DNA of 64,000 bases from an uncultured Enterobacterales bacterium (GCA_964481655.1 CAYZVO010000012.1:4654-68653), one strand, 5' to 3'; positions 20,458-42,681 are shown, counted from the first letter of the stretch. Notes: generated by a model not told the origin, from the letters alone. Numbers and translations: made by a program.

Positions 20458-20464
20458 GAGACCC

Positions 20465-22805: not shown

Positions 22806-24620
22806 GTGGTGCGCGCGCAGAACCAGAGCGCGGCGAAGCTGTTCGCCAGCGCCGCCAAGCCCGGTCAGGTAAACAGTGTCGGCGCGGCCATGGCCTGCGT
22901 GCACCGGCACACCCAGGGCTGTGCCAAGCGCGAGGGCTGCCAGCGCTGCCAGCTGCGCGCTGCGGTGACCATGGCCCTGGACGCCAACGAGCGGGTCGAG
23001 GCCCGGGAGATCCGCCTGGGCTGCCAGGACGGAGCCGAGGTCACCATGCGGGTGTTGCTGCTTGGAGCCTCGGCGCTGAGGTTCGGCGCCGCCCACCTGG
23101 CCCTGATGACCCTGCAGGATCTCAGCCCCCAGGCCCGGAGCACAGAGAAGGGCTGGGTCGCCACCCGCCTGACCATGCTCGACAGCGTCGAGGGTCCCGT
23201 CGCGGTGGTGGACCCCCGCCTGGGGCAGCTGGTCCACGCCAACCCCGCCGCCGTGCGGTTGCTCGACCTGCCCCCTCGGGGGCTCCAACACGGTGCCTGC
23301 CAGGCGCTGGCCTGCAGCGCGCAGTCCGGCGACTGCCCCGTGCTCGACCGGGGCGCCGAGTGCGACACCTCCGAGCGGGTGCTCATCCGGGGCGACGGCG
23401 AGCTGGCCATGCAGGTCACCGCACGGCCCCTCGACGTGGACGGCCGCAAGCTTGTGCTGGAGAGCCTGCGGCCCTTGGAGGAGCAGCGGCGGGTCGAGGG
23501 CATCATCCAGCGCCACAACGAGCGCCTCGAGGCCCTGCTGGAGCTGGGCCGCAAGCGGGATCAGGACGGCGCCGACGTGCTGGCCTGGGCACTGCAGGAG
23601 GCCATCAAGCTGACCCACTCCAAGTGCGGATACCTCTACTTCGTGGACGCCTCCCAGCAGACCCTGAAGCTGCACGCCAGGACCGGCGAGGCGGCGAAGG
23701 GCACGCTCCCGAAGCTGCCGCGCAACATCGACGCGTACGAGGCCGGCATCTGGGCCGACGCCCTGCGGCTGATGCAGCCGGTGACCCACAACGACTACCC
23801 CGGGCGCGGAGACATGCGCGCCGAGTACCCCGCTTGCTTCCGGGTGACGCGCCACCTGAGCGTGCCCATCACCGAGGGGGGCCGGGTGGCCGCGGTGCTC
23901 GGGGTGGGCGACAAGATCGGAGACTACGACGACACCGATGTGGAGCAGCTGGGCCTGTTCGCCACGAGCGTCTGGGACCTGCTCCGCAGGCGCCAGGCCG
24001 AGGGCCAGCTGCGCAAGTCGGTGGCCAACCTGCGGCTGCTGCTGCGGGGCACCACCGAGGCCATCACCCGGGCCGTGGAGATCCGCGACCCCTACACCGC
24101 CGGGCACCAGCGACGGGTCTCGGACCTCGCCAGGGCCATCGCCGCCAAGTTGAAGCTGGCCAGCCCCCAGGTGGACGCCATCCGCATCGCCGCCATGCTC
24201 CATGACATCGGAAAGATCGCCGTGCCCGCCGACATCCTCACCAAGCCCAGCCGCCTGACTGAGCTCGAGTTCCGGCTGCTGCAGCAGCACCCTGTGCAGA
24301 GCTTCGAGATCCTCGAGCACGTGGCCATGCCCTTCCCCATCCACACCATCGTGCGACAGCACCACGAGCGCCTGGACGGCTCGGGCTACCCCGACGGGCT
24401 CGAGGGCAAACAGATCCGCCCCGAGGCCCGCATCCTGGCCGTGGCCGACGTGATGGAGGCCATGGTCTCCCACCGCCCCTACCGCCCGGCCCACAGCGTC
24501 GAGGACGCCCTGGCCGAGCTCCACCGCCAACGGGGCAGCGCCCTGGATCGGCGGGTGGTGGACGCCTGCAGGGCCCTGTTCCTCCGGGACGGGTACAGCT
24601 TCGAGCGCGACGAGGGATGA
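22806..24620 (+). CDS. PAS-PAS-GAF-HD-GYP c-di-GMP phosphodiesterase family protein; 5' end uncertain or disrupted
   Basis: 604-aa ORF whose start is GTG. It has a GAF-like middle region. The HD-GYP domain includes HQRRVSDLA, MLHDIGKIAVP and HHERLDGSGYP. The same frame is open upstream to 22581 and reads ...PAFLLDRKLVVRAQNQSAAKLF (a PAS N-terminal strand), so the GTG start truncates the domain. No ATG/GTG/TTG exists in that frame upstream. Confidence 0.8.
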   Translation: MVRAQNQSAAKLFASAAKPGQVNSVGAAMACVHRHTQGCAKREGCQRCQLRAAVTMALDANERVEAREIRLGCQDGAEVTMRVLLLGASALRFGAAHLALMTLQDLSPQARSTEKGWVATRLTMLDSVEGPVAVVDPRLGQLVHANPAAVRLLDLPPRGLQHGACQALACSAQSGDCPVLDRGAECDTSERVLIRGDGELAMQVTARPLDVDGRKLVLESLRPLEEQRRVEGIIQRHNERLEALLELGRKRDQDGADVLAWALQEAIKLTHSKCGYLYFVDASQQTLKLHARTGEAAKGTLPKLPRNIDAYEAGIWADALRLMQPVTHNDYPGRGDMRAEYPACFRVTRHLSVPITEGGRVAAVLGVGDKIGDYDDTDVEQLGLFATSVWDLLRRRQAEGQLRKSVANLRLLLRGTTEAITRAVEIRDPYTAGHQRRVSDLARAIAAKLKLASPQVDAIRIAAMLHDIGKIAVPADILTKPSRLTELEFRLLQQHPVQSFEILEHVAMPFPIHTIVRQHHERLDGSGYPDGLEGKQIRPEARILAVADVMEAMVSHRPYRPAHSVEDALAELHRQRGSALDRRVVDACRALFLRDGYSFERDEG

Positions 24621-24744
24621 GCACGCATCCAGAACGGCCCACGGCCCGCCCCCCGTTTACCGGGTGCATCCGGTGTAATTCGATAATTCTCGTAGACCCC
24701 TTGCGCTGGACGGGCGGAAGCCCCACGATGGGGTCGAGGCCAAC

Positions 24745-25785
24745 GTGAGCACATCCCAACCACATCCCCCCGCCAGCCCTCGTGCGCTGCTGGCGCTGCT
24801 GCCCGTGCCGGCGGTGCTGATCGCCGAGGACTGGAGCCTGCGGCACTGGAACCAACCCGCCGCCACCCTGGTCGCCGCCGCCAGCGGACGCCGCCTGCAG
24901 GTGGGCGACAGCATCGGTGAGGCCCTGGGCTGCGAGCACGCCGGGGAGCAGGGCGAGGACTGTGGACGCGCCAGCGCCTGCCGGCGCTGCCCGGCCCGGA
25001 CCAAGAGCCTCGAGGCCCTCGCGGCGGGGACGCAGAGCACCGGCGTGGTGCTCGACATCATCAGCCCCAGCGGCGTGCGCCAGGGCTACCAGCTGTCCGT
25101 GGGCCCCATCGCCCTGGCCGACGGCCCCGGCGTGCTGATGACCATCGTGGAGCACCAGCGGGACGAGCAACACGTCCGCGACACCGTGCGGCGCCTGCGG
25201 CGCCTGCTGGGTGGGTGCGTCGAGGCCATCACCCGGGCCGTCGAGATGGGAGACCCCGCCACCGCCGGCCACCAGCGCCGGGTGTCGGACCTGGCCCGGA
25301 GCATCGCCACCGAGCTGGGCCTGTCGGCCCGGCAGGTGGACGCCATCCGCCTGGCCGCCATGCTGCACGACATCGGCAAGCTGGCGGTGCCCTCGGACAT
25401 CCTCACCAAGCCCGCGGCGCTGACCCCGGCCCAGATGGCGCTGGTCCGCAACCACGCCCCGGCGGGGGCCGAGATCCTGGCCCCCATCGCCTACCCCGAG
25501 GGCTTGAGCAGCATCGTGGGCCAGCACCACGAGCGCGGCGACGGGAGCGGCTATCCGGCGGGCCTGCGAGGGGACGCCATCTGCGTCGAGGCCCGCATCC
25601 TGGCGGTCGCGGACGTGGTCGAGGCCATGCTCTCCCACCGCCCCTACCGTCCGGCTCACAGCCTCGAGGCCGTGCTGCAGGAGCTGAAGCAGCAGCGCGG
25701 ACGTCAGCTCGACGCCCGCGCCGTGGATGCCTGCATCCGCCTGTTCGAGGACCGGGGCTACCGGTTCCCCGAGGACCCGCGCTAG
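24745..25785 (+). CDS. PAS-like sensor / HD-GYP c-di-GMP phosphodiesterase family protein (paralogue of the preceding gene)
   Basis: 346-aa ORF with a GTG start and GAGG upstream. Motifs are HQRRVSDLA, MLHDIGKLAVP and HHERGDGSGYP. The N-terminal sensor aligns with the first PAS of the upstream gene, including the Cys cluster. Confidence 0.85.
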   Translation: MSTSQPHPPASPRALLALLPVPAVLIAEDWSLRHWNQPAATLVAAASGRRLQVGDSIGEALGCEHAGEQGEDCGRASACRRCPARTKSLEALAAGTQSTGVVLDIISPSGVRQGYQLSVGPIALADGPGVLMTIVEHQRDEQHVRDTVRRLRRLLGGCVEAITRAVEMGDPATAGHQRRVSDLARSIATELGLSARQVDAIRLAAMLHDIGKLAVPSDILTKPAALTPAQMALVRNHAPAGAEILAPIAYPEGLSSIVGQHHERGDGSGYPAGLRGDAICVEARILAVADVVEAMLSHRPYRPAHSLEAVLQELKQQRGRQLDARAVDACIRLFEDRGYRFPEDPR

Positions 25786-27089
25786 GCGTAGGTGAAGGTC
25801 GGGAACTTCGCGGTGAAGGCGAAGACCTCTTCCCGCAGGGCCGCGGCGGCGGCCTTGTCGGTGAAGATGCCGGTGCCCTTCTCGATCTTGCCGCGCTTGG
25901 TCAGGGCGCAGGTGCGGTCGATGAAATCGGCGATGGTGGCCATGTCCTCGGCCCCCATGCCGCGGCTGGTCACCGAGGGGGTGCCCACGCGGATGCCGTC
26001 GGGGAACAGCGGCTTCTGGTTGGGGCGGGCGTTGGGCACGGTGTTGAAGTTGCAGACGATGCCGCAGCGCTCCAGCGCGATGGCCACCCGGCGGCCGGGC
26101 AGCTTGCGGGACTCGAAGGTGTTGACCAGCAGCAGGTGGTTGTCGGTGCCGCCGCTCGAGACCTTGTAGCCGCGCTCCACCAGGGCCGCGGCCAGCGCCT
26201 TGGCGTTGCCCACCACGTTGTGGGTGTAAGCCTTGTACTCGGGGGTGGCGGCCTCGGCGAGGGCCACGCCGATGGCGGCGATGGTGTTGAAGTGGGGCCC
26301 GCCCTGCATGCCGGGGAACAGGGCCTTTTCGACCTTCTGGTAGTGCTCTTCCGACTTGGCCAGGATGAGCGCCGCGCGGGGGCCGCGGAGGGTCTTGTGG
26401 GTGGTGAAGGTGACGATGTCGATGTGGGGCCACGGCGAGGGGTGGGCGCCGCCGGCCACCAGGCCCGCGATGTGGGAGATGTCGGCCAGGGAGATGGCGC
26501 CGACGTCACGGGCGATCTTGCCGAACTCCTCGAAGTCGATGGTGCGCGGGTAGGCGGTGTAGCCGCAGACCAGCACGTCGGGCTGGAACTCCTGGGCCTG
26601 GCGCCGGATCTCGTCCATGTCCAGGACGTCGTCGGGGTTGCAGCCGTAGGCGCCGATCTCGAACCACTGGCCGGTCACCGAGACCGGGGAGCCGTGGGTC
26701 AGGTGGCCGCCGTGGTCCAGGCGCATGGCCATGATCTTGCCCTCGAAGGGCTTGATGAAGGCGGCGTAGACGGCGAGGTTGGCGGGGGCGCCGGACAGCC
26801 CCTGCACCACGGAGTGGGGGTAGCCGAAGACCTCGCAGGCCCGCTTCTGGACCAGCACTTCCATCTCGTCGGTGAACTTCTGGCCCTGGTAGTAGCGCTT
26901 GCCCGGGTAGCCTTCGCCGTACTTGTTGGTGAAGGTCGACGCCAGGGTGGCCCGCACGGCGGGCGAGGCGTAGTTCTCGGAAGGGATCAGCCGGATGCAG
27001 CGCTGCTGGCGCGCGTCTTCCTTGGCGACCAGGTCAGCCATGGCGGGATCGGCTTCACGGATGGTGGCGACGATGTCTTCGGGGCGCAT
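25782..27089 (-). CDS. glyA: Serine hydroxymethyltransferase
   Basis: 435-aa ORF. Motifs are LIPSENYASPAV, NKYGEGYPGKRYYQG and the PLP-lysine block TFTTHKTLRGPR. A GAGGAG RBS is present. Confidence 0.95.
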   Translation of the reverse strand: MRPEDIVATIREADPAMADLVAKEDARQQRCIRLIPSENYASPAVRATLASTFTNKYGEGYPGKRYYQGQKFTDEMEVLVQKRACEVFGYPHSVVQGLSGAPANLAVYAAFIKPFEGKIMAMRLDHGGHLTHGSPVSVTGQWFEIGAYGCNPDDVLDMDEIRRQAQEFQPDVLVCGYTAYPRTIDFEEFGKIARDVGAISLADISHIAGLVAGGAHPSPWPHIDIVTFTTHKTLRGPRAALILAKSEEHYQKVEKALFPGMQGGPHFNTIAAIGVALAEAATPEYKAYTHNVVGNAKALAAALVERGYKVSSGGTDNHLLLVNTFESRKLPGRRVAIALERCGIVCNFNTVPNARPNQKPLFPDGIRVGTPSVTSRGMGAEDMATIADFIDRTCALTKRGKIEKGTGIFTDKAAAAALREEVFAFTAKFPTFTYA

Positions 27090-27145
27090 GGGGACTCCTC
27101 GTTTTCCGGGGAAATGGGAGCCCCCCTATAGCGTGTCGCGGCCGC

Positions 27146-28846
27146 CTATTCCTGGCCAAACACGTCCAAGCTGACGGCGTACAGGCCTTCGGTCCAGCTG
27201 CCGTCGGCGTCCTCGAGGCGGACGGAGTCGACGATGCGGGGCTGCAGGTCGATGCCCATGCCGAGGGGGTCATCCGTGCCACCCAGCAGCTCGCCCAGAT
27301 CGATCTCGATCATGCCGCCCAGCAGAGACAGCAGGGACTCCAGGAAGCCGCCCAGGCCGTCGATGACCTCGGCCTCCTCCCAGCTGTCCTCGGTGGCGTA
27401 GTCGAGCACCGCGCCCTCGACCACGTCCAGGTCGATGCCGATGACCGAGCCGTCGTCGGTGACCTCGATGCCCAGCTCCACCGCCAGGCTGGCCTCGAGC
27501 CAGTCCTCGCAGCTCGAGCCGTGCATGGTCTCGATCTCGACCTGCAGATCCGGCAGGTACAGCACCGCCAGGGGCGCGATGCCCTCCTGCATCCGCACGA
27601 CATAGGCGTCGCCGGGCTCGAGGGAGAAGCACCAGCCGTCGTTGTCGGGGATGTCGTCGCCGCCGGGCAGGTTCTCCATGGGGCCGCCGATCATGTCGCC
27701 CATGAAGCCGCCCAGATCCATGCCCTGGTCGAGCATGCCCAGCAGGGTGTCGCCCAGCATGATGTCCAGCAGGCCCTCGTGCAGGCCCAGGACCGCGTGA
27801 GCGTCAGGGGCTTCGTCGAGGCCGGGCATGGGGATCGCGGGGGCGACCTCGGGCATGGGCTCGTCGATGGCGATGCCCAGGCCCAGGGCCAGGCCCTCTT
27901 CGTCGCCGGCCAGCTCCACCAGCTCGGCGGCCAGCATCGTGCCCATCAGGTCCTGCTCGAAGGCGAAGGGCCCGCCCAGCTCGAAGGTACCGAACTCGGC
28001 CAGCACGAAGTCCAGCAGCCACTCGCCGAGGGGCTCGCTGACGTACTCGTTGAGCAGATCGAGGATCCACTCCACCACCCAGCCCTCGAGATCGCCGAAC
28101 TCGGCGTCGGGCTCGTCAAGCGCCACGCCGGTCTCGGACAGCTCGAGCCAGACGATGCCGTCGTCGTCGAGCCAGGGGGTGGCCATGGCCGTGATCTCGA
28201 TGAGGCCGTAGCCGAAGCTGATGTCGGAGCTGAAGCCGTAGCCGTAGACATCGACCACGACCTCGTAGCCGAGCACCAGGTTGTTGATCGCGATGCCCAC
28301 GTCGATGCCGCCCTCGACCGCGTCGAGCACCACCACGGTGGGATCGTGGATCGCGCCGGTGGCGTAGAAGCTGACGAACTCGCCCTCGTAGCTGGGCATG
28401 GCGGCGGTGATCTGATCGGCCCAGCCGGTGTCGTCGATCATGCCACCCAGCTGCTCACCCAGCAGCTCGAGGCCCGCGGGCAGCAGCCTGCCCGTGGCGC
28501 CATCGGGCCAGGTGTCGATGGGGTCGTGGCCCGAGAAGACCGGGATGCGCTCCCGGAGGTACTGATCGCCGTGCCAGGCCTCGACATCGACGATGCGGTA
28601 GGCGTGATCGACGGCGACGGCGGTGCGGAAGGCGCCGTGGGAGAGATCGCTGAGCTCCACACCCTCGACGTGGACGATGGCGTCGTCCGGGTAGACCTTG
28701 CCCTCGACCTGAGCGTCGGCGTCGCCGAGGAAGTCGCCGTAGTGGGGCGAGGTGAGCTCGAGGGTCAGGGTCTCGTCGATGGGGACGAAGGCGTAGTCGG
28801 CGCGGCAGCCGACCAGCAGCAGGGCCGCGAGGGCGAGGCGGTTCAT
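27146..28846 (-). CDS. Large, very acidic lipoprotein, function unknown
   Basis: 566-aa ORF: MNRLALAALLLVGC (lipobox). It is D/E/G/L-rich with no recognisable catalytic motif. Confidence 0.65.
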   Translation of the reverse strand: MNRLALAALLLVGCRADYAFVPIDETLTLELTSPHYGDFLGDADAQVEGKVYPDDAIVHVEGVELSDLSHGAFRTAVAVDHAYRIVDVEAWHGDQYLRERIPVFSGHDPIDTWPDGATGRLLPAGLELLGEQLGGMIDDTGWADQITAAMPSYEGEFVSFYATGAIHDPTVVVLDAVEGGIDVGIAINNLVLGYEVVVDVYGYGFSSDISFGYGLIEITAMATPWLDDDGIVWLELSETGVALDEPDAEFGDLEGWVVEWILDLLNEYVSEPLGEWLLDFVLAEFGTFELGGPFAFEQDLMGTMLAAELVELAGDEEGLALGLGIAIDEPMPEVAPAIPMPGLDEAPDAHAVLGLHEGLLDIMLGDTLLGMLDQGMDLGGFMGDMIGGPMENLPGGDDIPDNDGWCFSLEPGDAYVVRMQEGIAPLAVLYLPDLQVEIETMHGSSCEDWLEASLAVELGIEVTDDGSVIGIDLDVVEGAVLDYATEDSWEEAEVIDGLGGFLESLLSLLGGMIEIDLGELLGGTDDPLGMGIDLQPRIVDSVRLEDADGSWTEGLYAVSLDVFGQE

Positions 28847-28917
28847 GGGGCCTCCGTGGAGTCCTTGGGCCGTTCTTGCTACCTTGGCCCGGCCATACGA
28901 TAGCCAGGGAGTTCGGC

Positions 28918-29136
28918 ATGCGCGAGGTTCGCTTCAGCCTGGTCATCTCCGCCGAGGAGATGCTGCGGTACTACCAGGGTGCGGCCCAGAACGTGCTCGT
29001 CACCACCGACCGCGGCCTCAAGCTCCAGTTCCCCGCCGAGCACCTGCGCAGGTTCGTCACGGAGCAGGGCGTGCGTGGGCGCTTCGCGATCCGCTTCGAC
29101 GCGAACAACCGCTTCGTGGACCTGCGACGGATCTGA
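28918..29136 (+). CDS. DUF2835 family small protein
   Basis: The track ORF 28876..29136 is trimmed to ATG 28918. MREVRFSLVISAEEMLRYYQGAAQNVLVTTDRGLKLQFPAEHLRRFVTEQGVRGRFAIRFDANNRF matches the conserved DUF2835 pattern as I recall it. Confidence 0.65.
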   Translation: MREVRFSLVISAEEMLRYYQGAAQNVLVTTDRGLKLQFPAEHLRRFVTEQGVRGRFAIRFDANNRFVDLRRI

Positions 29137-29217
29137 CGATCCCGGTCATCCCGGAAGCACGGCCGCCCGTGATATGCGGCTCGCCTTGCCCCCAACCGAA
29201 CCCCCAAGGAGTACCCC

Positions 29218-29814
29218 ATGCGCCGCGCTGCCACGTTCTCCGCCCTCGCCTTCGGCCTGATCCTCTCCCTCGCCTGCGGGGGCCTCGGCTCCGAGGCCGA
29301 GCCCTGCCCCGAGCCCGAGCCCTGCCCCGCCGACGGCGAATGCTGCGACACCGAAGATGTGCTCCTGATGAGCGCCATGGGGCTGAGCGACGAGGCCATG
29401 ATCGCCGCCATCGAGACCGACACGGTGGACTTCGAGGTCCCCGAGGCCGATGTGCTGCGGCTGCAGGAAGCCCAGATCTCCCAGGACGTCATCGACGCGC
29501 TGGTCGGCAAGGCGCCAGCCGCCACCACCCAGGGTGCCCCCAAGGTGCCGCCGCTGGATGTGTCCATGACCTACACCGCCGGCGCGCGGACCTTCGTGCT
29601 CAACAACCACTCGGCGAAGACCTACACGACCCTGGTGCTCACCGCGAACGGCGAGTACGTCTACCGGCTCAAGAAGCTGCCCGTGGGCGCCGAGGACAGC
29701 ATCCGGCTCTCCACCTTCACCTCGCGCAACTCGGGTCAGTCGCTCAAGGCCAAGGAAGGCATCCGGACCATGTACATCAGCGCCGACCAGGGCGTGTGGT
29801 CCAAGAGCTTCTAG
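29218..29814 (+). CDS. Lipoprotein with an N-terminal Cys-rich acidic linker, function unknown
   Basis: 198-aa ORF: MRRAATFSALAFGLILSLAC (lipobox), then EPCPEPEPCPADGECCD. An AAGGAG RBS is present. Confidence 0.65.
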   Translation: MRRAATFSALAFGLILSLACGGLGSEAEPCPEPEPCPADGECCDTEDVLLMSAMGLSDEAMIAAIETDTVDFEVPEADVLRLQEAQISQDVIDALVGKAPAATTQGAPKVPPLDVSMTYTAGARTFVLNNHSAKTYTTLVLTANGEYVYRLKKLPVGAEDSIRLSTFTSRNSGQSLKAKEGIRTMYISADQGVWSKSF

Positions 29815-29827
29815 ACGCCGTCGCGCC

Positions 29828-30874
29828 TCAGTCCGAGCGCTCGACGCGGTTCCGACCCAGGCGCTTGGCCAGGTAGAGCGCCTGGTCGGCGCGGCCGATC
29901 CAGGACTCGACCGGCTCACCGGGCCGCAGGCGGGCGGAGCCCAGGGAGACCGTCACCGTGAGGTCTTCGTGGGTGCGGGACCAGTCGTAGGCCATGAAGG
30001 CCATGCGCAGGCGCTCGGCCGCGGCCCAGGCGGTCTCTTCGTCGGTGCCCGGGAGGAAGGCCAGCAGCTCCTCGCCACCGTAGCGCACCCACTGGTCTTC
30101 GTTGCGGCAGGCCTGGACCACGATGTGCGCTGCCTGGCGCAGGACCTCGTCGCCCACCTGGTGGCCGAAGCGGTCGTTGACCTTCTTGAAGTGGTCGATG
30201 TCCAGGAACAGGCAGCAGAGGTAGTGGCCGCTGTTGCGGGACTGGGTGACCATGTCCGGCAGCTTGTCGTCCATGAAGGAGCGCATGAACAGGCCCGTGA
30301 GGGGATCGCGGCCTTCGGCGAGCTGCAGGCGCTTGGCGACCCGGCGCAGGTGGTCGATCTGCGGAGCCTCGAGCAGCTCGAGCATCAGGGAGACGTTGAC
30401 GATGTCGACCTTGGTGCCCGGCTCCACGACCGTGGACTTCACCGGCACGCCGCCGATCTCGACCCCGTTGGTGGAGCCGAGGTCCACCACCTCGAACCAG
30501 CCTTCGTCCTTCCATGAGATGCGGGCGTGCAGCCGGGAGACCCCGGCATCCGACAGCAGCAGATCCGCCTTGGGGTCGCGGCCGATGAGGATCTCGCCCT
30601 TGAGGGCCAGGTTGACGAAGCCGCCGAGATCCGAGCCCGCCGAGACCCGCACGATGGGGTAGAACAGCCGGCCCCCGACCTTCTTGCGGTTGATGCGCCG
30701 CTCGATGGTGGGCTCGGCGTTTTCGTCGACCGTGTAGAAGTCCAGCTCTTCGGAGACGACCTCTTCGGTCATCTTCTCGGCGTCCGCCGTGAGGTCGTCC
30801 CGCCGCCGCCCGATGGAGGGCTGCAGGCCCGAGAGCAGGCGGCTGGTGAACCGGCTGGGACGCTTGCTGGACAT
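29828..30874 (-). CDS. FHA domain-containing diguanylate cyclase family protein (GGEEL variant)
   Basis: 348-aa ORF. The FHA core is ILIGRDPKADLLLSDAGVSRLHARISW...DLGSTNGVEIGG. The GGDEF domain has DPLTGLFMRSF, an RNED I-site and RYGGEELLAFLPG. Confidence 0.85.
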   Translation of the reverse strand: MSSKRPSRFTSRLLSGLQPSIGRRRDDLTADAEKMTEEVVSEELDFYTVDENAEPTIERRINRKKVGGRLFYPIVRVSAGSDLGGFVNLALKGEILIGRDPKADLLLSDAGVSRLHARISWKDEGWFEVVDLGSTNGVEIGGVPVKSTVVEPGTKVDIVNVSLMLELLEAPQIDHLRRVAKRLQLAEGRDPLTGLFMRSFMDDKLPDMVTQSRNSGHYLCCLFLDIDHFKKVNDRFGHQVGDEVLRQAAHIVVQACRNEDQWVRYGGEELLAFLPGTDEETAWAAAERLRMAFMAYDWSRTHEDLTVTVSLGSARLRPGEPVESWIGRADQALYLAKRLGRNRVERSD

Positions 30875-31194: not shown

Positions 31195-31680
31195 CTACGC
31201 CTCCGCGCTCTCCGCATCCCGCAGTCGCAGCCTCGTCCAATGCAGGTGATCGACCTGCCGGGCCTCGAGCAGCTCGAGCGCGATCTTCACGCCGACGATC
31301 TCGATGCGGGTCCCCACCTGGACACAGCCCCAGTCGATGTCTGTGCCGTCCACCTGGGTGCCGTTGGTGCTCGCGAGGTCCTGGACCTCGAAGCGGCCGT
31401 CCGCGCGCCACCGCACCCGGGCGTGCATCCGGCTGACCCCGGGGTCCTTCAGGCGCAGCCCCGCCGAGGGATCGCGGCCGATGATCACCTCGCCGCTCAC
31501 GGCCAGGCTGGCGTACGCGCCCAGGCTGTCTCCCGAGGTCACCCGGACCACCGGGTAGAGCACCCGCTCACCCCGAAGGGTCCGGTGTAGCTGATGCTCC
31601 ACCGTGGCGCTGATCTCCGTGGTGTGGTCCTCGGATCTCCCGAACCTGCGCGCGAGCTTCCTGAGCTGGTCCAGCGCCAT
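31195..31680 (-). CDS. Stand-alone FHA domain protein (paralogue of the N-terminal half of the downstream FHA-GGDEF protein)
   Basis: 161-aa ORF. The FHA core is VIIGRDPSAGLRLKDPGVSRMHARVRW...DLASTNGTQVDG. The C-terminal helix LELLEARQVDHL matches LELLEAPQIDHL in the neighbouring gene. Confidence 0.8.
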   Translation of the reverse strand: MALDQLRKLARRFGRSEDHTTEISATVEHQLHRTLRGERVLYPVVRVTSGDSLGAYASLAVSGEVIIGRDPSAGLRLKDPGVSRMHARVRWRADGRFEVQDLASTNGTQVDGTDIDWGCVQVGTRIEIVGVKIALELLEARQVDHLHWTRLRLRDAESAEA

Positions 31681-31808: not shown

Positions 31809-32300
31809 ATGCCCCGACGCCTGATCCTCGCCCTGATCGCCCTGACCGGCGCGCTGCTGATCGCCCTGGTCCCCTTCGCCCCCGAGCCCGCCGAGGCGGC
31901 CAAGAACGCGCCGACCTTCACCCTCGAGGACTGCCACGGCAAGCCGGTGACCCTCGACCAGTACTCGGGCAAGCCCCTGGTGCTGAACTTCTGGGCCACC
32001 TGGTGCCCGCCCTGCCAGGTCGAGATCCCGGCCCTGTCCTCCTACGCCAGCGCCAACCCCGGCGTGTCGGTCGTGGGCGTGGCCCTGGACTCGGGGCCGG
32101 CGGATCACATGCCCCAGCTGCGCACCGAGCTGGGCATCGAGTACGAGATCTTCGCGGGCAACAACGACATCGTGCAGGCCTACGGCGTGCGGGGCCTGCC
32201 CACCACCGTGGTCATCGACGCCGACGGCTCGGTGTCGTCGGTGCACACCGGCCCGATCACCGAGCGGGAGCTGGCCGAGCTGGTCGAGAAGGCTCGCTAG
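31809..32300 (+). CDS. TlpA-family thiol:disulfide oxidoreductase (membrane-anchored thioredoxin-like)
   Basis: The track ORF 31743..32300 is trimmed to ATG 31809 (MPRRLILALIALTGALLIAL...). Motifs are LVLNFWATWCPPC and GLPTTVVID. Confidence 0.85.
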   Translation: MPRRLILALIALTGALLIALVPFAPEPAEAAKNAPTFTLEDCHGKPVTLDQYSGKPLVLNFWATWCPPCQVEIPALSSYASANPGVSVVGVALDSGPADHMPQLRTELGIEYEIFAGNNDIVQAYGVRGLPTTVVIDADGSVSSVHTGPITERELAELVEKAR

Positions 32301-34132
32301 CGGCGGCAGCCCACGGCGGGCCCCGGGGCGCTGGCGGTCCACAGCCGGGTGCCCACCCAGTCGTCGGGGGTGAACACCAGCTGCTCGAGGCCCAGCTGCT
32401 GCAGGGCTGCGTCCTGGCGCTCGCCCTGATCCGGCCTCCACCAGTGCACCACGAAGAGGTTGGCAGGCCAGGCGGACTCCGCGCCCACGCCCGCGTAGCG
32501 CAGGGCCAGCTCCCTCACGCGCAGGGCGTCCGCCGGGCCCTGCTCGGTGGCCAGCCGGACGTCGGCGAAGGGCGCGGCGGCGTAGAGCGCGTCGTCCAGC
32601 TGCTGCCAGTCGCAGTGGCCCCCGCAGTGCAAGAGCACGATGGGGGGACAGCCCGGCTCGGCGTGCTCCGCGATGGCCCGGCTCAGCTCGGTCCAGGGCT
32701 CGCCGAAGGGGCGGGGGTAGTTCGAGACCAGCTGGAAGTTCCAGGGCCGCTCCCGCAGCTGGGTGGAGCAGAGCTCGAGGCCCGCGCGGTCGTTGCCCGG
32801 GAAGCCGAAGGGCGAGGCCGCGTCCATGAACGCCGGCAGCGGCAGGGGCACGTCGCGCCCACCCGGCGTGAACAGCCAGCCGATGTGGTAGCTGGCGGTC
32901 CAGAGGAGGACGAGCCCGCAGACCACCCGCATCACCCGACGCCAGCCGGACAGGGCGAGCACCGCGGGCACCGCCAGGGCCGGGAAGGCCGGCACGATGT
33001 AGCGGTCGCAGCGGTAGGGCAGCACCGCCAGGATGACCAGACCGGAGAGCAGCACCAGCCAGGCCCAGCCGCCGACGGGGCGCCCACCGGGCCACAGGGC
33101 CCGGCCGAGCCCGAGCAGGAACAACGGCAGCAGCAGGGTGGGCAGCCGGAACCAGGTCACCAGCGGGTAGTAGGACCAGGTCTCGGCCAGGGGCATCAGC
33201 TCGCCGTCGTAGTCGAACTCGAGGTTCGAGCTCAGGAACTCCTGCATGGCCCCCGCGTTGCCCAGGTACCAGGGGCCCGCGATGAGGCCCACGCCCAGCA
33301 CCAGGATGCCGGCGCCGATGAGCCGCTCGCGGCCGTGCTCGGCCAGCAGGTGCGGGGCCTGCAGCGCCAGCGCAGCCAGGACGAACGCCAGGGCGCCGAG
33401 GATGGCGATGCCGATGAAGGCGCCGCTGTACAGCCAGCCCCCCAGGCCGGCGGCGACGGTGCCCGCGGCCACCACGGCCGCCACTGAGGCGCCCGCGCCC
33501 ATGGGCCGCCGCTTCAGGGTCCGCAGCATCACCACCACCAGGGCCAGCAGCATGGGCGGGCCCAGGAAGAAGCCGAAGGACCACTTGCTCATCAAGCCCA
33601 GGCCCAGGCAGACCGCCAGCCCGGCGGCGGGCAGCTTGCGGCGCAGCCCGTCGCTGGCGTCCCAGCACGCCAGCGCCCCCAGGGCCAGGGCCGCCAGGGG
33701 GATCTCGCTGAAGTAGAAGCCCCGCAGCTGGCTCAAGGAGGCCAGCATGGTCGCCAGGGCCGCGGCGGTGACCCCGGCCAGCACGCCCGCGTGGCGCCGG
33801 ACGAAGCCGAAGGCGGCCAGGGCCAGCAGCAGCCAGGCGGGCCACAACGAGGCCACGGCCATCTGAAGGCTGGTGCCGAAGGCCGCGAAGTGCAGCGCGG
33901 TCCAGGTGGGCAGCAGCGGCGGGTAGGGGCTCAGGGAGAAGCAGCCCATGGAGGACTGGTCGCTGCCCCAGGAGGCATCGAGGCAGGCGGCGGCCCGGAA
34001 GATGTTGCGGTCGTCGCTCAAGGTCCCGGGGTGGTCCATGGAGACCCACAGCAGCTGCAGCAGGCTGACCACCACGGCCACGGCGATGCCGGGGCCCCAC
34101 TGACGCAGGAGCTGTCGCAGGCGCTCGGGCAT
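32297..34132 (-). CDS. GT-C fold membrane glycosyltransferase (ArnT/PMT, GT39/83-like) with a C-terminal periplasmic domain
   Basis: The track ORF is trimmed to ATG 34132 (MPERLRQLLRQWGPGIAVAVVV...). It has about 11 TM segments, an early loop WVSMDHPGTLSDD (Asp-containing first loop) and a soluble tail of about 200 aa. Confidence 0.6.
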   Translation of the reverse strand: MPERLRQLLRQWGPGIAVAVVVSLLQLLWVSMDHPGTLSDDRNIFRAAACLDASWGSDQSSMGCFSLSPYPPLLPTWTALHFAAFGTSLQMAVASLWPAWLLLALAAFGFVRRHAGVLAGVTAAALATMLASLSQLRGFYFSEIPLAALALGALACWDASDGLRRKLPAAGLAVCLGLGLMSKWSFGFFLGPPMLLALVVVMLRTLKRRPMGAGASVAAVVAAGTVAAGLGGWLYSGAFIGIAILGALAFVLAALALQAPHLLAEHGRERLIGAGILVLGVGLIAGPWYLGNAGAMQEFLSSNLEFDYDGELMPLAETWSYYPLVTWFRLPTLLLPLFLLGLGRALWPGGRPVGGWAWLVLLSGLVILAVLPYRCDRYIVPAFPALAVPAVLALSGWRRVMRVVCGLVLLWTASYHIGWLFTPGGRDVPLPLPAFMDAASPFGFPGNDRAGLELCSTQLRERPWNFQLVSNYPRPFGEPWTELSRAIAEHAEPGCPPIVLLHCGGHCDWQQLDDALYAAAPFADVRLATEQGPADALRVRELALRYAGVGAESAWPANLFVVHWWRPDQGERQDAALQQLGLEQLVFTPDDWVGTRLWTASAPGPAVGCRR

Positions 34133-37931: not shown

Positions 37932-38996
37932 ATGACCCGCACCCTGCCCCTGCTCCTGCTGCTCGCCGCCTGCGGCGAGCCCGAGCCCAAGGACGACACG
38001 TCACCACCGGAAGGAGACACCGACACCGACACCGACGCCGACAGCGACGCCGACAGCGACAGCGACAGCGATGCTGACACGGACGTGCAGGGGTTCCCCC
38101 GGTACTCCCTGAAGGTGTTGTCGGAGCGCGAAGGCCGCGCGGCCGCCGTGACCGACGCTGGCTACGCGGTGGGCTACACCGTGGATGATCAGGTGCTGCT
38201 CTGGACCCTGGGCGACGAAGGCTGGACCGAGTCCGAGGTGCAGCCCGGGGTGGCCGCGGTCGCGTTCGCCGTCAACAGCCAGGGACACGTCCTGGGGCAG
38301 TACACCGAGCAGCGCCGCGGCTTCTTCTGGACGCCCGCCGACGGGCACATCGACCTGAGCGGCACCGTGCGCGCCATGAACGACGCCGATCAGGTGGTGG
38401 GCTTCGACCCGGACAGCTTCCAGCCCTGGATCTGGGAGCCGGACGGAGAGCGCACACTGGTGGAGATCGACGCTGGGGCCTACGGCGTGACCTCGTTCGT
38501 GGCCATCAGCGACGCGGGCCTGGTCGGGGCCTCCGTGGACCGCGGGGTCTACGGCAAGAACGCCGCCCGCTGGGACAGCGCGGACGGGCTCGTGGAGCTC
38601 GACAACGTCGGCACCAACTCGTTCTGCACGGCCAACGCCATGAACCAGGCCGGAAGCCTCGTGGGTTGGTGCATGGAGAACTCGGAGACCGACGAGATGA
38701 TCGCGGTGACCTGGCCGGCCGACGGGGTCGCCCAACAGCTGACCGAGTGGGCGAGCAGCTGCTACGCCAACGCCATGGACATCAGCGACGACGGCCTGAT
38801 GCTCGGCACGGACAGCTGCGGCCCCAGCCCCTGGCTGCGCCTCGGCGGCGACACCGTGCCCATGCTGGAGCTGGTGGACGACATGCAGGGCTGGGAGATC
38901 TTCACCCCGATGACGATGAGCGCGGGCGGCACCATCGCGGGTCGGGTCGAAGCTCAGGACACGACACGACCGGCGCTGCTCATCCCGGTGGAGTAG
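37932..38996 (+). CDS. HAF-repeat extracellular lipoprotein with a (Asp-Thr/Ser/Ala)n linker
   Basis: 354-aa ORF: MTRTLPLLLLLAAC (lipobox), then GDTDTDTDADSDADSDSDSDADTD. It then has repeated A.N..G.vvG units (AVNSQGHVLG, AMNDADQVVG, AISDAGLVG, AMNQAGSLVG, DISDDGLMLG). Confidence 0.7.
   Translation: MTRTLPLLLLLAACGEPEPKDDTSPPEGDTDTDTDADSDADSDSDSDADTDVQGFPRYSLKVLSEREGRAAAVTDAGYAVGYTVDDQVLLWTLGDEGWTESEVQPGVAAVAFAVNSQGHVLGQYTEQRRGFFWTPADGHIDLSGTVRAMNDADQVVGFDPDSFQPWIWEPDGERTLVEIDAGAYGVTSFVAISDAGLVGASVDRGVYGKNAARWDSADGLVELDNVGTNSFCTANAMNQAGSLVGWCMENSETDEMIAVTWPADGVAQQLTEWASSCYANAMDISDDGLMLGTDSCGPSPWLRLGGDTVPMLELVDDMQGWEIFTPMTMSAGGTIAGRVEAQDTTRPALLIPVE
38026..38093 (+). repeat. Imperfect hexanucleotide tandem repeat (GAC-NNC)n encoding the D-[TSA] linker
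   Basis: gacaccgacaccgacaccgacgccgacagcgacgccgacagcgacagcgacagcgatgctgacacggac, read directly from the sequence. Confidence 0.9.
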
Positions 38997-39033: not shown

Positions 39034-40254
39034 CTAGGTCTGGGAGGCGGCCTCCCGCGCCTCGATGGTCTTGATCGTCGCCGTCGCCAGCCTGCGCAGG
39101 CTTGGGCGCATCCCGGGATGCTTCGCCACCATCTCGAGGCTGGGGCGCACGCTGTGGTCGCCCTGGGCGACCTTCAGGATGGCGACCATCAGGCGCACGT
39201 CGGGGGTGCGAGGGGCGAGCTTGACGGCCTGGCGCAGGTGGGCCTCGGCGGCCGCGATGCTGCGCGGTTCCGGGCGGTAGAGGTAGAGCAAGGCCGCCCG
39301 GGTGTGGGGGAACCAGTGGCCCTGCAGCTGGGTGCAGGCCTTGCCGTGCAGCTGGCGTGCGGTCTCGCCGTCGCCCTGCAGCTCGGCCTCGAGGGCCTGC
39401 AGCACGGTGAGCGCGCCGGCAGCCTTGGGGTGCTCCATGTCACCGGCGGTGGCGATGAGGCCCTGGATGGCCTCGAGTCCGGCCTGCTCGCACCACAGGC
39501 GAGCCAGCTCGATGAGGTGCAGGGGCTCGAGGGCCGCGTGCTCCTGCACGGTCTGCAGCATGGGGGGCACGCGCTCACCGCGCCCGGCCAGCAGCTCGAG
39601 CTCGGCGAGATCCATCAGCAGCCCCGGGGTCTGCACCAACCCGCCGGCCAGCAAGCCGGCGATGCGGTCGGCACCCTCGGCCACCTGGCCGGTCATGCGG
39701 AACAGGCGCGCCATGGCCCGGTAGGGGCCCTCGTGGGCGGGGTTGAGCTGCTGGGCCAGCCGCAGCATGTCCAGGGCGGGCTGAAGGCGGCCGGTGGCCA
39801 TGAGCACCAGCCCCAGCCCGAAGTGGGCCTCGGCGCTCTTCGGGTCCTGATCGATGGCGCGGGACAGCTCGGCCTCGGCGTCATCCATGCGGCGCAGCCG
39901 GAACAGGGCGCGACCCACGAGCACCCGTGAGGCAGCGTCGGCTGGATCGTCGGCCAGCAGGCCCCGGGCGGCGTCGAGGCCGGACTCGGTGCGGCCCAGC
40001 TCGATGAGGGCCTCGGCCCGCAGCCGGGCGGAGAAGAGGGCCAGCTCGGGCGCGGGCGCGTCGTAGCCACCCGCGGCGTCCAGCACGGCCTGCCAGCGCC
40101 CTTGCCCGGCGGAGACCGCCGCCTGGCTGATGGTGCTGACGCCGCGCACCCGGTCGGCCAGCGCGGCCTGGTCCTGGGAGACCTGGGCGTAGTCGCCCAG
40201 CGTCGCGGCCACCCGCAGCCGCTCGAGGATGGTGAGGATCTCGCTCGTGTCCAT
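39034..40254 (-). CDS. TPR-repeat protein
   Basis: 406-aa ORF. It is all-helical and Ala/Leu-rich with repeated TPR-like units (AEAHFGLGLVLMATGRLQPALDML, GPYRAMARLF...). It lies 56 nt downstream of, and co-directional with, the 743-aa unknown gene. Confidence 0.7.
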   Translation of the reverse strand: MDTSEILTILERLRVAATLGDYAQVSQDQAALADRVRGVSTISQAAVSAGQGRWQAVLDAAGGYDAPAPELALFSARLRAEALIELGRTESGLDAARGLLADDPADAASRVLVGRALFRLRRMDDAEAELSRAIDQDPKSAEAHFGLGLVLMATGRLQPALDMLRLAQQLNPAHEGPYRAMARLFRMTGQVAEGADRIAGLLAGGLVQTPGLLMDLAELELLAGRGERVPPMLQTVQEHAALEPLHLIELARLWCEQAGLEAIQGLIATAGDMEHPKAAGALTVLQALEAELQGDGETARQLHGKACTQLQGHWFPHTRAALLYLYRPEPRSIAAAEAHLRQAVKLAPRTPDVRLMVAILKVAQGDHSVRPSLEMVAKHPGMRPSLRRLATATIKTIEAREAASQT

Positions 40255-40310
40255 GTGGCCTCACGGTCACGGCCACGGGGCCGCGCGCTGTCAGGAGGGT
40301 CCCGTCGGGG

Positions 40311-42542
40311 CTACCAGAGGTCGAAGAGGTCGTCGCCCACCCAGTCCACCGCGGTGGCCAGGGCCCCGGACCAGCCGCCTTCGGCCTTCTCTTCTTCCAT
40401 CCACTCGTCGATCTTGGCCTGGATGATGTCCACGGCGTCGTCGTACCAGTCCGAGGCCTGCTCGAGGGCCTTGACCAGCCACTCGGTGCCGCGCATGAAC
40501 AGCACGCCGGCGAAGCGCACGCCGTCGATGGCGTCGAGGATGAGGTCCGTGTGCACGCCCGCGCCCAGGCCGACGGTGCCCGCCAGGGAACCGCTGACGT
40601 TGATCTTGCCACCCTTGAGGGTGAGCCCGAACTTGGCCTCACCGCCGATGCCGGCGGAGCCTTCCACGCCGGCCTTGCCGGTGAGCAGGTCGGACTTGCC
40701 GGAGCCGATGAGCACCCGGGAGACCTCGGTCCAGGTGGAGTCGGGGACCTTGTCCACCAGGTAGTCGTCGAAGCCGCCGGGCAGGGACTTGGCGAAGCCC
40801 TTGACCAGCTGGGTGTAGTCGGGCTGGCGGCGCCAACGGATCTTCGCACCGACCTCGACCCCGGCCTTGGCGCCGGCGAAGGCCTTGCCGCCGCCGGAGA
40901 CCTGCACGCCCAGATCGTCGCCCTTCGAGATGTCCAGATCGATGTTGCCGTTGGCCTCGGCCAGGACCGCGGCGCTGACTCCGGCGGTGACGGCCACATC
41001 GACCTTCTCGCCCAACATGGTCCAGCCGAAGGTGGGGGCCTCGATGCGGGCGTTGCCGCCGATGAGGGTGGCCTTGGCGCCGGCGCTGCCGCCGACCTTG
41101 ATGGCGTCATCGGTGATCGTGGCGCGGCCCTTGGCGTTGGCTTCGGCGCTCAGGGCGTTCCAGGAGGCCTCGGCCTCGCCGCCGCCGTTGTCCCACTTGT
41201 GCTGGATCTTCTGCTCGTAGAGGCTGGCCTTGGCGCCAGCGTTGACCTCGGCGTAGCGGTTGCCGTCGTCGTCCTTGCCAGCCTTGGCGCCGGCCTCGGC
41301 TTCGGTCTTGCCCCAGGTGGTGGTGAGGCGGGTGTGCTTGTCGAGCTTGTCGACCGTCTCGCTGTGGGTGTCTGTGATCTTGCGGCTGATGCCGGCGGAC
41401 TGCCGGTCGGCGGACAGGGTGGTGGCGTCCTCGTGCTTGCCGGTGACGATGGGGGAGCCATCCGCCGCCACAGAGCGGGTCTGGGTGGTCTCCTTGAAGG
41501 TCAGGCTGCCGCCGATGCCCTTGTCGGTGCGGTAGCCCACGTCGCCGCGGACACCCTCCTGGGTCTGGTCGCTGACCTTGGTGCCGTCCTCGAGGACGCG
41601 CTCCTCGATGACGCCGGAGGTGTAGCCGTAGCCGACGCCCACGCCGTGATCGACGGTCTTCTCGTCGTCCTTCTTGCCGTGGATCCGTTCGCCGGAGACG
41701 GAGTAGTCGTGATCCGAGGTGTAGGTGGTCTTGCTGCCGTCGCCGTGGTCGGTGGTGATCCTCGAGCCGGTGCCGCCGGTGAACTTCAGGCCGCCGGTCT
41801 TGGTGTCGCCATCCTTGGTCAGCGAGCCTTCGCCGCCGGCCTTCCAGTAGTCGGTGTGGGTGAGGTTCCCATCCGTGCGGGTGTCATCGACCCGGACCTC
41901 CGAGCCCACCTTGTTGGTGCCGCCCCAGTTGACCTTCTTGTCCTTGTCGGCGCCGGGGCCGAACTCGGAGCTGACGGAGCTGTGGCGACCGAAGTCGGAG
42001 GACTCGGTCTGGGAGGTGGTGATGGTGCGGGTGGTGCCGTCGGAGCCGGTGTACTTGGCGCGCTGCTTCTTGTCGTAGTTGAGGTACTGGGTCTCTTCGG
42101 CCCGCTTCCACTCTTCCTCTTCGAAGGCGGCTTCGTTCTGCTCGTCGGACTCACCGACCATCCGGAAGGTGACATCGTCGGAGGTGGTGCTCGCGTCGGA
42201 GACGGGCGCGGCGCCGCGGCCGGCGCTGACCGAGCTGCTGCTCGAACCGCCCCAACCGAACAGATCGCCCAACCAGCCGAAGAACCCGCCCTCGCCCATG
42301 TCGCCGCCCACATCTTCGCTGGGGCCGGCGGATTCGGTGCCCTCGAGCTGCAGCGGGCCGACGGTCTGGCCGGCGATGCTGGTGCTGGAGCTGTCCTGTT
42401 CTTCGGCCGGCGTGCTCAAGGTGGCCACGTCGCCGGAGGCGCTGGTGGTCTGGTTCTCGTTGGCGATGTCCACGCTCTGATCGACCGCGGCCGACTCGAG
42501 GACCTGCTCCTTCTTCTTGGCGCGGGTCTTGGACAACGACAT
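40311..42542 (-). CDS. Large leaderless Gly/Thr/Lys/Asp/Ala-rich protein of unknown family
   Basis: The track ORF 40311..43070 is trimmed to ATG 42542 (MSLSKTRAKKKEQVLES...), with a GGAGGTG RBS. No signal peptide or lipobox. It has an N-terminal GFFGWLGDLFGWGG motif, a long beta-strand-like T/D/K/G middle, repeated AGAKA/EANAKG units and a helical acidic C-terminus ending DWVGDDLFDLW. Confidence 0.7.
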   Translation of the reverse strand: MSLSKTRAKKKEQVLESAAVDQSVDIANENQTTSASGDVATLSTPAEEQDSSSTSIAGQTVGPLQLEGTESAGPSEDVGGDMGEGGFFGWLGDLFGWGGSSSSSVSAGRGAAPVSDASTTSDDVTFRMVGESDEQNEAAFEEEEWKRAEETQYLNYDKKQRAKYTGSDGTTRTITTSQTESSDFGRHSSVSSEFGPGADKDKKVNWGGTNKVGSEVRVDDTRTDGNLTHTDYWKAGGEGSLTKDGDTKTGGLKFTGGTGSRITTDHGDGSKTTYTSDHDYSVSGERIHGKKDDEKTVDHGVGVGYGYTSGVIEERVLEDGTKVSDQTQEGVRGDVGYRTDKGIGGSLTFKETTQTRSVAADGSPIVTGKHEDATTLSADRQSAGISRKITDTHSETVDKLDKHTRLTTTWGKTEAEAGAKAGKDDDGNRYAEVNAGAKASLYEQKIQHKWDNGGGEAEASWNALSAEANAKGRATITDDAIKVGGSAGAKATLIGGNARIEAPTFGWTMLGEKVDVAVTAGVSAAVLAEANGNIDLDISKGDDLGVQVSGGGKAFAGAKAGVEVGAKIRWRRQPDYTQLVKGFAKSLPGGFDDYLVDKVPDSTWTEVSRVLIGSGKSDLLTGKAGVEGSAGIGGEAKFGLTLKGGKINVSGSLAGTVGLGAGVHTDLILDAIDGVRFAGVLFMRGTEWLVKALEQASDWYDDAVDIIQAKIDEWMEEEKAEGGWSGALATAVDWVGDDLFDLW

Positions 42543-42681
42543 GGGCACCTCCAGAGGACACACGAGGGGCGTTGGCGAGCCATCGCGTGAGTGAGCAGTA
42601 TAGCCTCCATCCACGCGTTCCGGAGGGTCGTCTGCACCTCGGTGGGATATGCAGCCCGCCCGCTCGCCCCAGAGGACCTCC

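Follow-up and report, generated by a model that had tools for sequence, protein, structure and literature searches.

A conserved C-terminal beta-hairpin domain, joined to export modules in relatives and paired with a TPR protein, in a candidate effector family

In a 64,000-nucleotide stretch of DNA from an uncultured Enterobacterales bacterium (GCA_964481655.1, CAYZVO010000012.1:4654-68653; called here the window, at its full length), one minus-strand gene encodes a 743-aa protein, here called X, that an earlier reading of the sequence (the original prediction) could place in no family, and a gene for a protein made of tetratricopeptide repeats (TPR) follows it. What kind of protein is X, and what does its TPR neighbor do? 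We observed that X carries a domain that defines a family, that this domain has a confidently predicted architecture with conserved amphipathic strands, that in other proteins it is fused to export modules, and that the pairing with a TPR gene is conserved. From these observations we infer that X may be exported, that the TPR protein may bind the tail of X, and that X may act on membranes. The explanation that we favor, tentatively, is that X is an exported effector, possibly membrane-inserting, which is held in the cytoplasm of the producer by a cognate TPR chaperone or immunity protein.

Gene X and its protein family

The locus consists of the following elements.

40311..42542, minus strand: gene for X, 743 aa; an open reading frame (ORF) translated with no internal stops, stop codon at 40311..40313
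42548..42552, minus strand: ribosome binding site GGAGG, 5 nt before the ATG of X, read directly from the sequence
40255..40310, minus strand: 56-nt spacer between X and the TPR gene, with GAGG 4 nt before the TPR start
39034..40254, minus strand: gene for the all-TPR protein, 406 aa; Pfam TPR_16 at E=2e-15 plus other TPR families, no signal peptide

A protein identical to X has been called on six public contigs. The ATG start is favored over an upstream TTG at 43070 because 11 homologues with 58-77% identity begin at the same M-S-L-S-K-T-R (MSLSKTRAKKKEQ). Furthermore, a start at the TTG would extend the frame into the RNase HII gene, which is transcribed divergently, and we therefore rejected it. 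The original prediction had described an ORF with a good ribosome binding site and a host-like GC content at third codon positions (GC3), and this description held: GGAGG lies 5 nt before the ATG, and the GC3 of X is 0.94 versus 0.90-0.98 for the other genes of the window. Residue counts and a Kyte-Doolittle scan likewise agreed with its account of an odd composition (G 14.4%, A 9.7%, T 9.3%, D 9.2%, S 8.6%, K 7.0%, and no Cys) and a missing signal peptide; the top 19-residue mean is only 1.29, at residue 509, and no stretch of X reaches the hydrophobicity of a transmembrane helix. The motifs that it had listed were all found: GFFGWLGDLFGWGG spans aa 86-99, the small-residue units are there, and aa 733-743 form the tail DWVGDDLFDLW. 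A single regular expression matches both of the W..DLF.W motifs that it had described as an echo between the N- and C-terminal parts of X.

Its statement that the family was unrecognizable also stood. X gave no match in Pfam, NCBIfam, PADLOC or PHROGs, with Pfam empty even at E<=1, and PDB sequences searched with X alone and with a profile of its family (alignment A4, below) yielded nothing credible. A word-indexed search of 5.8 billion proteins returned only 12 relatives of X, with 58-77% identity, all from metagenomes or metagenome-assembled genomes. Among these close relatives the C-terminal half is near-invariant, and the N-terminal third differs in both sequence and length. An exhaustive HMMER profile search of 1.84 billion cluster representatives then gave 108 proteins at E<=1e-3, including 70 at E<=1e-10. 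What these 108 representatives share is a block of ~270 residues, usually C-terminal, in proteins of 260-2118 aa; in X it corresponds to the following segment.

40443..41270, minus strand: conserved core domain of the family, aa 425-700; 7-8 very long strands in antiparallel order, with a three-helix insert and a helix at the C-terminal end

When 29 diverse copies of the core domain were aligned and curated (A4), they showed the motifs G-x-AGA-x-x-TLV-x-G; F...GE; AEA.G; AFAGAKAG.E.GA.L.W.KK..Y; AG.EGSAGIGG.A; GG.....G...GT.GLG.G; and LD..DG.R. Residues F555, G557, W570, G613, G631, G633, G658 and G660 are invariant in A4, and E512 is nearly so. Archangium, Melittangium, Corallococcus, Hyalangium and Pyxidicoccus have conserved short forms, from which the helical insert is missing; source records call such homologues 'transporter' or 'Circumsporozoite protein', names to which Pfam and NCBIfam lend no family basis. 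A metagenome locus scan with a narrower family alignment returned six loci. We regard the core domain as a new, unnamed family that is probably used within a known logic.

Fusion of the core domain to export modules

PF13699 (eCIS_core, formerly DUF4157), the marker domain of toxins of extracellular contractile injection systems (eCIS), lies N-terminal of the core domain in 10 of 66 distant homologues and in five more proteins from further searches, and the HExxHxxQ motif occurs in 16 of 187 full-length family members. The same 66 homologues include three with PG_binding_1, one with SH3_3 and one with a bactofilin match. Other fusions involve WXG100 and, in actinobacterial proteins, 'YukE' and PF21725 T7SS_signal; clear Sec signal peptides are present in nine family members. 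One protein, P0145, keeps the domain only in part: its DUF4157 is joined to the last hairpin alone (45 columns aligned by hhalign at a probability of 96%). It sits within an operon of sheath, tube, Pvc16_N, AAA ATPase, base_V and gp25 genes (locus L009).

A C-terminal domain common to several trafficking modules is the usual sign by which polymorphic-toxin domains are recognized. Because the core domain is shared across export modules in this manner, an effector- or toxin-like reading of X is ranked first. The original prediction had raised a secreted role, and the position of the relatives' domain after DUF4157/eCIS_core, WXG100, T7SS_signal or Sec signal peptides makes this plausible.

As we envision it, X would be a modular protein exported independently of Sec, with the disordered, polar aa 1-124 as a candidate export or loading signal, aa 154-423 as a polar beta-hairpin spacer of variable length, and aa 425-700 as the conserved C-terminal effector domain containing two amphipathic beta-hairpins of ~55 residues. 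In the producer, the cytoplasmic TPR protein would bind X, gripping either the D-W-x-G-D-D-L-F-D-L-W tail or the hydrophobic faces of the hairpins, and would keep it soluble and inactive. After delivery, the amphipathic hairpins would insert into a membrane, attacking the envelope of the target cell. As for the export route, our leading guess is that another part of the genome encodes a contractile injection system or a system of some other kind.

A role in phage lysis was considered for P0124, which combines PG_binding_1 with the domain. This idea was dropped: its neighborhood consists of small unannotated ORFs, 10 of these neighbors gave no match when compared with PHROG, and the contig is a polished long-read assembly with apparent frameshifts.

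The TPR partner and the C-terminal tail

The original prediction had noted a TPR gene 56 nt 3' of X and treated the two as a pair. We recovered the 406-aa ORF, its TPR_16 match and the 56-nt gap, and a terminator scan detected no minus-strand site between the two genes; the only sites, two on the plus strand, are both inside X. A TPR gene adjoins the homologue, directly downstream and on the same strand, in eight different genomic neighborhoods, one of which is that of the window clade. The other pairings are as follows.

L010: 602-aa homologue, the stop of which overlaps the TPR start
L012: 558-aa homologue followed by TPR
L014: Archangium primigenium (a cultured genus), 339-aa homologue followed by TPR
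L018: 1415-aa homologue at 6701..10948 followed by TPR
L019: 1477-aa homologue at 747..5180 followed by TPR
L021: DUF4157 fusion P0036, then an apparent split TPR gene
L022: 364-aa homologue, then a split TPR gene

At these loci the upstream genes are different in every annotated case. Near-full-length alignments with 27-61% identity connect the TPR proteins of the window, L006, L012, L018 and L019 (27-39% between the window protein and its orthologues in L012, L018 and L019), while those of L010, L014, L021 and L022 are related weakly but detectably. No signal peptide was found in any of the pair TPR proteins compared, and the TPR proteins diverge in step with their X partners. Because only ~2 of the ~50 genes in the window encode TPR proteins, adjacency of this kind is far beyond chance.

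In L018 and L019, the two very long homologues, ~1000 residues of Thr/Gly/Asp/Ser-rich, hairpin-like sequence stand ahead of the core, with C-terminal domain, tail and TPR left unchanged. Directly after the TPR gene of L019 (6331..7926, plus strand) is a gene for a T2SSE-family ATPase with a MshEN (cyclic di-GMP (c-di-GMP)-binding) domain. A link of this gene to the pair is doubtful, and we did not count it in: the only other case noted is in L012, ~6.4 kb upstream and on the opposite strand, and the window has none.

Three loci have no downstream TPR gene: L009, which encodes the eCIS-operon protein, L011, which encodes a WXG100 fusion, and L013. In L011, a gene of the DcrB/DUF1795 family stands downstream of the fusion instead of TPR. 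Some members of this family serve in type VI systems as chaperones, covering the hydrophobic segments of effectors. In the same locus (160..1239 and 7078..7539), the WXG100 fusion, P0134, is near a WXG100 + C39 peptidase protein and a Ser/Thr kinase.

The end of X is itself a conserved feature.

40314..40346, minus strand: C-terminal tail DWVGDDLFDLW-COOH, aa 733-743, fixed at the extreme C-terminus

The pattern D[WF]xGD[DK][LVI]F[DN]LW is present at the exact C-terminus of all the complete long forms listed (550-1427 aa), and the short forms have related acidic/Trp tails, such as DWAGDRFEDV...TPWN and GDWVTPW. Because the motif is fixed at a free C-terminus next to a TPR gene, and by analogy with the recognition of free C-terminal peptides by other TPR proteins, we suggest that the tail is a candidate ligand of the TPR partner. 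The original prediction had suggested a chaperone or an adaptor; we propose that the TPR protein may be a chaperone, an immunity protein or both, a proposal as tentative as the effector explanation to which it belongs.

Predicted structure of X and its amphipathic hairpins

Besides the core domain and the tail, we distinguished these parts of X.

42171..42542, minus strand: N-terminal region, aa 1-124; Lys-rich polar start MSLSKTRAKKKEQ, then acidic and Ser/Thr-rich; predicted disordered
42246..42290, minus strand: aromatic/Gly motif GGFFGWLGDLFGWGG, aa 85-99; conserved, echoes the C-terminal tail
41274..42083, minus strand: polar beta-hairpin region, aa 154-423; Thr/Asp/Gly/Lys-rich strands of 12-23 residues with Asp-Gly turns
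40830..41009, minus strand: amphipathic beta-hairpin 1, aa 512-571; strands 512-539 and 545-571, turn KGDDL; holds the AFAGAKAGVEVGAK.xW motif
40698..40829, minus strand: helical insert, aa 572-615; three short predicted helices; conserved LPG..DD.L.D..P...W
40536..40697, minus strand: amphipathic beta-hairpin 2, aa 616-669; AGVEGSAGIGGEA ... GG turn ... GTVGLGAGV; strands 616-643 and 646-669
40347..40532, minus strand: acidic helical C-terminal region, aa 671-732; predicted helices

The full-length AlphaFold2 (AF2) model of X is weak overall, with a predicted local distance difference test score (pLDDT) of 57; its aa 160-500, at 70-90, form a continuous, long antiparallel hairpin meander. Modeling the core domain alone with A4 gave a pLDDT of 90.4, a predicted TM-score (pTM) of 0.77, and strands of 20-28 residues. 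Overall, AF2 assigns beta-hairpins to aa 154-571 and 616-669. Thus, the hairpins of the original prediction were recovered, whereas its view of them as short segments was not, as the strands run to 15-28 residues; its 'Gly/Ala-zipper' wording is misleading, since the segments in question are predicted to be beta-strands rather than helices.

The N-terminal region has a pLDDT < 50. Its first 13 residues are conserved, and the rest of aa 1-124 is variable among homologues. Across the family the N-termini are polar (mean Kyte-Doolittle -0.8, 63% polar) and resemble those of the DUF4157-bearing relatives; members without a signal peptide equal the DUF4157-bearing members in polarity. We infer that aa 1-124 is a candidate signal for non-Sec export or for loading. 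Within the aromatic/Gly motif, G85, G86, F87, W90, L91, F95 and W97 are invariant across 12 homologues, and aa 88-94 form a short helix in the AF2 model, at low confidence. In the polar hairpin region (pLDDT 70-90), every strand is polar on both faces, and the turns are DG, GD, DDGN and EDGT. The length of this region differs among homologues, with ~1000 aa preceding the core in relatives of 1304-1477 aa.

In the core domain, the four strands 512-539, 545-571, 616-643 and 646-669 (24-28 residues) show near-perfect alternation of hydrophobic and polar residues. As a mean of the 29 divergent members, the two faces differ by 3.8 and 3.5 Kyte-Doolittle units in the strands of hairpin 1 and by 2.8 and 4.1 in those of hairpin 2. 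Hairpin 2 is the most widely conserved element of the family and the sole part that hhalign aligns to P0145. The helical insert is missing in the short forms, as seen with the Archangium homologue (hhalign) and in alignment A6. A helix follows at aa 671-699 (model residues 247-275) in the domain model, and at 676-734 in the full-length model with low confidence. The conservation of the amphipathic hairpins suggests that a membrane is the target. The sole support for a possible pore formation or self-assembly is these four long amphipathic predicted strands and their conservation in the family.

The fold searches and other sensitive searches that the original prediction had called for turned up no characterized family. 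When the core domain model was compared with PDB and BFVD, Foldseek found no analogue, the best E-value being 0.04 with TM-scores < 0.2. The top Foldseek matches to the AF2 model were TonB-dependent receptors and autotransporter barrels (TM-scores <=0.26, root-mean-square deviation > 15 A). Together with the long beta-meander and the name 'transporter' that the Archangium and Hyalangium homologues bear in source records, these matches could be taken to mean that X is an outer-membrane beta-barrel, a porin or a transporter. We consider this highly improbable and rejected it, given the missing signal peptide, the strands of aa 154-423 that are polar on both faces, and the low TM-scores.

The same strands bear on a second possibility, that X is an exported, non-toxic structural protein that self-assembles into a surface sheet, fibril or coat, with the TPR protein as its cytoplasmic assembly or holding chaperone. 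Strands of up to 28 residues with small-residue faces are suited to sheet packing, and a polar hairpin region of variable length, in proteins of 550-1477 aa, is what is seen in fibrous repeat proteins. Vertical inheritance, synteny and an apparent single copy would also fit, as would the conservation of the short forms across Corallococcus, Hyalangium, Archangium, Pyxidicoccus and Melittangium, and a secreted structural protein would fit the export-module fusions equally well. However, DUF4157, WXG100 and T7SS_signal fusions have been described mainly for toxins and effectors; Pfam, NCBIfam and Foldseek revealed no likeness to amyloid, S-layer or adhesin families, and one bactofilin match among 66 members is too little to build on. 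On balance we regard a structural role as somewhat unlikely. If it were correct, the family would represent a new kind of bacterial surface or coat protein.

Genomic setting and the evidence against an effector

On every contig examined, X sits between a divergent block (RNase HII, GT2, a phosphodiesterase and a 532-aa gene) and the TPR gene, the immediate neighbors of X being the RNase HII gene and the TPR gene. The genes past the TPR gene vary from contig to contig. The annotated genes of the window include those for c-di-GMP signaling proteins, serine hydroxymethyltransferase, a polyprenyl synthase, a radical SAM enzyme and glycosyltransferases, and no tRNA genes were found in it. This gene content, along with the homologues in Archangium and Melittangium, tentatively points to a Myxococcota-like marine lineage.

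Several observations weigh against the idea that X is a membrane-attacking effector. We found no secretion or injection machinery among the annotated genes of the 64-kb window, and X lies in a syntenic housekeeping neighborhood, with host-like GC3 and no signs of mobile elements. The DnaJ J-domain carried by one relative hints at life in the cytoplasm, and the DUF4157 fusion that has the full domain (L021) has no contractile injection system (CIS) genes within 10 kb. Conservation in X is highest in the C-terminal domain, which in classical polymorphic toxins is the most variable part, and neither in sequence (PDB) nor in fold (Foldseek against PDB and BFVD) does X resemble known toxins. A cytoplasmic TPR protein would be unusual as immunity against a membrane toxin. 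Finally, the predicted strands are 2-3 times the length that a bilayer requires, and with their Ala/Gly/Val faces they could also pack tightly, one sheet on another, in a soluble rod.

Taking the housekeeping context and the lack of export machinery in the window at face value, X might never leave the cell and might instead be a housekeeping scaffold in the cytoplasm, membrane-associated or cytoskeletal, that works with the TPR protein; the export fusions would then be a secondary re-use of a membrane-binding domain. This would agree with the J-domain of the one relative and with the fact that neither X nor its partner has a signal peptide. However, the domain occurs in fusions with at least four kinds of module for export or an extracytoplasmic location, and the disordered polar N-terminus of X resembles that of DUF4157 cargo proteins. 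We therefore consider a scaffold that is never exported to be improbable, and an exported effector is still the explanation that we favor.

Comparison with known effectors and their partners

DUF4157 is a marker of eCIS toxins, and eCIS cargo begins with a disordered loading sequence, may then carry DUF4157, and has a variable effector domain at its C-terminus (PMC8213781, PMC11297309, PMC8894135, bioRxiv 10.64898/2026.05.27.728243). DUF4157 is present in more than half of the predicted eCIS toxins, and is usually the only annotated domain there (PMC11297309); in the DUF4157 class, long linkers connect the N-terminal module to the C-terminal domain (PMC8213781). With its polar aa 1-124 of low pLDDT, X fits this published layout except for the missing DUF4157. 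Like Cgo1 and Cgo2 of AlgoCIS and the eCIS-associated toxins (EAT proteins), it has a disordered polar N-terminus, a variable linker and a C-terminal effector domain, and that domain is homologous to those of many DUF4157-bearing proteins. A disordered N-terminus of low hydrophobicity is not specific to this class, though, and X has no DUF4157 in itself or within two genes and no eCIS operon within ten genes; DUF4157 is found in at least 16 relatives, and such an operon only around the distant, partial homologue P0145. To our knowledge, eCIS toxins have not been described as having a conserved TPR partner.

A narrower form of the effector explanation is that X is cargo of an eCIS or type VI secretion system (T6SS) encoded elsewhere in the genome and is loaded through its disordered N-terminus. 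Many relatives carry DUF4157/eCIS_core, P0145 lies within an eCIS operon, and the published loading signal is a disordered N-terminal domain, with DUF4157 being dispensable. However, X is without DUF4157, which no neighboring gene encodes, and the window, which extends at least 21 kb to each side of X, has no CIS gene, whereas ~88% of known eCIS toxins are encoded within ten genes of the operon (PMC11297309). In addition, the DUF4157 fusion of L021 with the full domain is not beside CIS genes, and the match of P0145 spans only 45 residues. This specific route seems to us unlikely, no better placed than the cytoplasmic scaffold.

The translocators of type III secretion systems (T3SS), YopB/YopD with SycD and IpaB/IpaC with IpgC, are likewise presumed membrane inserters without signal peptides that are encoded beside a cytoplasmic all-TPR protein, which would hold them in solution until export. 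The translocators have a helical make-up that includes transmembrane helices; X, by contrast, is predicted to consist almost entirely of beta structure, and no T3SS genes were found in the 64-kb window. The window TPR protein was rejected as a T3SS class II chaperone, as it scores 16.2 bits with LcrH_SycD TIGR02552 versus a cut-off of 104.8 and, at 406 aa, is larger than the three-TPR chaperones of that class (~160 aa).

Beta-barrel pore-forming toxins (alpha-haemolysin, aerolysin, MACPF/CDC) share with X paired long hairpins with hydrophobic/polar alternation, and the 55-60-residue hairpins of X are about as large as those that MACPF proteins insert into membranes. Such hairpins are necessary for this class but not sufficient. 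X has no sequence or fold match to these toxins and no recognizable oligomerization or receptor-binding domain, and the hydrophobic faces of its strands are mostly Ala, Val and Gly.

Polymorphic toxins and WXG100/LXG effectors of the type VII secretion system (T7SS), such as TelE, resemble the X family in combining one C-terminal domain with interchangeable modules and a partner gene on the same strand; like TelE, the X domain is Gly-rich and presumably membrane-active. X departs from polymorphic toxins in that its C-terminal domain is conserved and its N-terminal and middle parts vary, and its partner is a cytoplasmic TPR protein rather than a small membrane immunity protein. Glycine-zipper toxins (Tse4, TelE, CdzC) have short helical GxxxG segments, in contrast to the 270-aa beta-rich domain of X. 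We rejected X as a member of this group: AGIGGEA and GTVGLGAGV lie in confidently predicted strands, and no stretch attains transmembrane-level hydrophobicity. By analogy with these systems, the closest functional parallel for the X-TPR pair is an effector that has its own chaperone or immunity protein.

A bolder proposal, which we think unlikely, is that the ~270-aa domain founds a new class of beta-hairpin effectors that attack membranes, travel by at least three unrelated routes (contractile injection, type VII and Sec) and are handled by TPR proteins via the ...DDLFDLW tail in Myxococcota and related marine lineages. If true, it would amount to a previously undescribed effector-chaperone/immunity logic and could point to an unrecognized export route for signal-peptide-less proteins in predatory bacteria. 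Aside from this proposal, one DUF4157-linked domain now has clear boundaries, conserved motifs, a confident model and a distribution over several export systems, making it a concrete candidate for a toxic or membrane-active domain. A specific interaction is suggested by the TPR partner together with the invariant tail; if real, it would extend TPR-chaperone logic beyond type III secretion. The short forms are found in predatory myxobacteria that can be cultured (Corallococcus, Archangium, Hyalangium, Pyxidicoccus), which brings genetics and secretome studies within reach.

Other features of the window

Just past the TPR gene, at 37932..38996 on the plus strand, is a gene for a 354-aa putative lipoprotein with a LLLLLAAC lipobox and a long Asp-Thr/Asp-Ser linker (DTDTDTDADSDADSDSDSDADTD) after the Cys; it has no Pfam match on record and is missing from this position in some relatives. 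A 1283-aa ORF at 47322..51173 (minus strand), in the stretch of the window with 80-83% GC, encodes a very Pro/Ala/Arg-rich, apparently intrinsically disordered protein that has no Pfam match, yet its length (1242-1325 aa) and position are kept in syntenic relatives. Strong AT skew (0.3-0.4 in 1-kb windows) marks both 32297..34132 (minus strand), a 611-aa gene with no Pfam match on record, and 3582..4980, where no ORF passes the GC3/GC2 filter.

A dense set of c-di-GMP genes occupies 12484..30874, together with a nearby FHA protein.

12484..14226: HDOD-GGDEF protein
16615..17859: GGDEF protein
22587..24620: GAF-HD_5 protein
24679..25785: HD_5 protein
29828..30874: FHA-GGDEF protein
31195..31680: FHA protein

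The window also encodes a second large TPR protein, of 732 aa (8557..10755, plus strand), which unusually combines the repeats with a match to the ClpX C4-type zinc finger (E=3.6e-10) close to the C-terminus.

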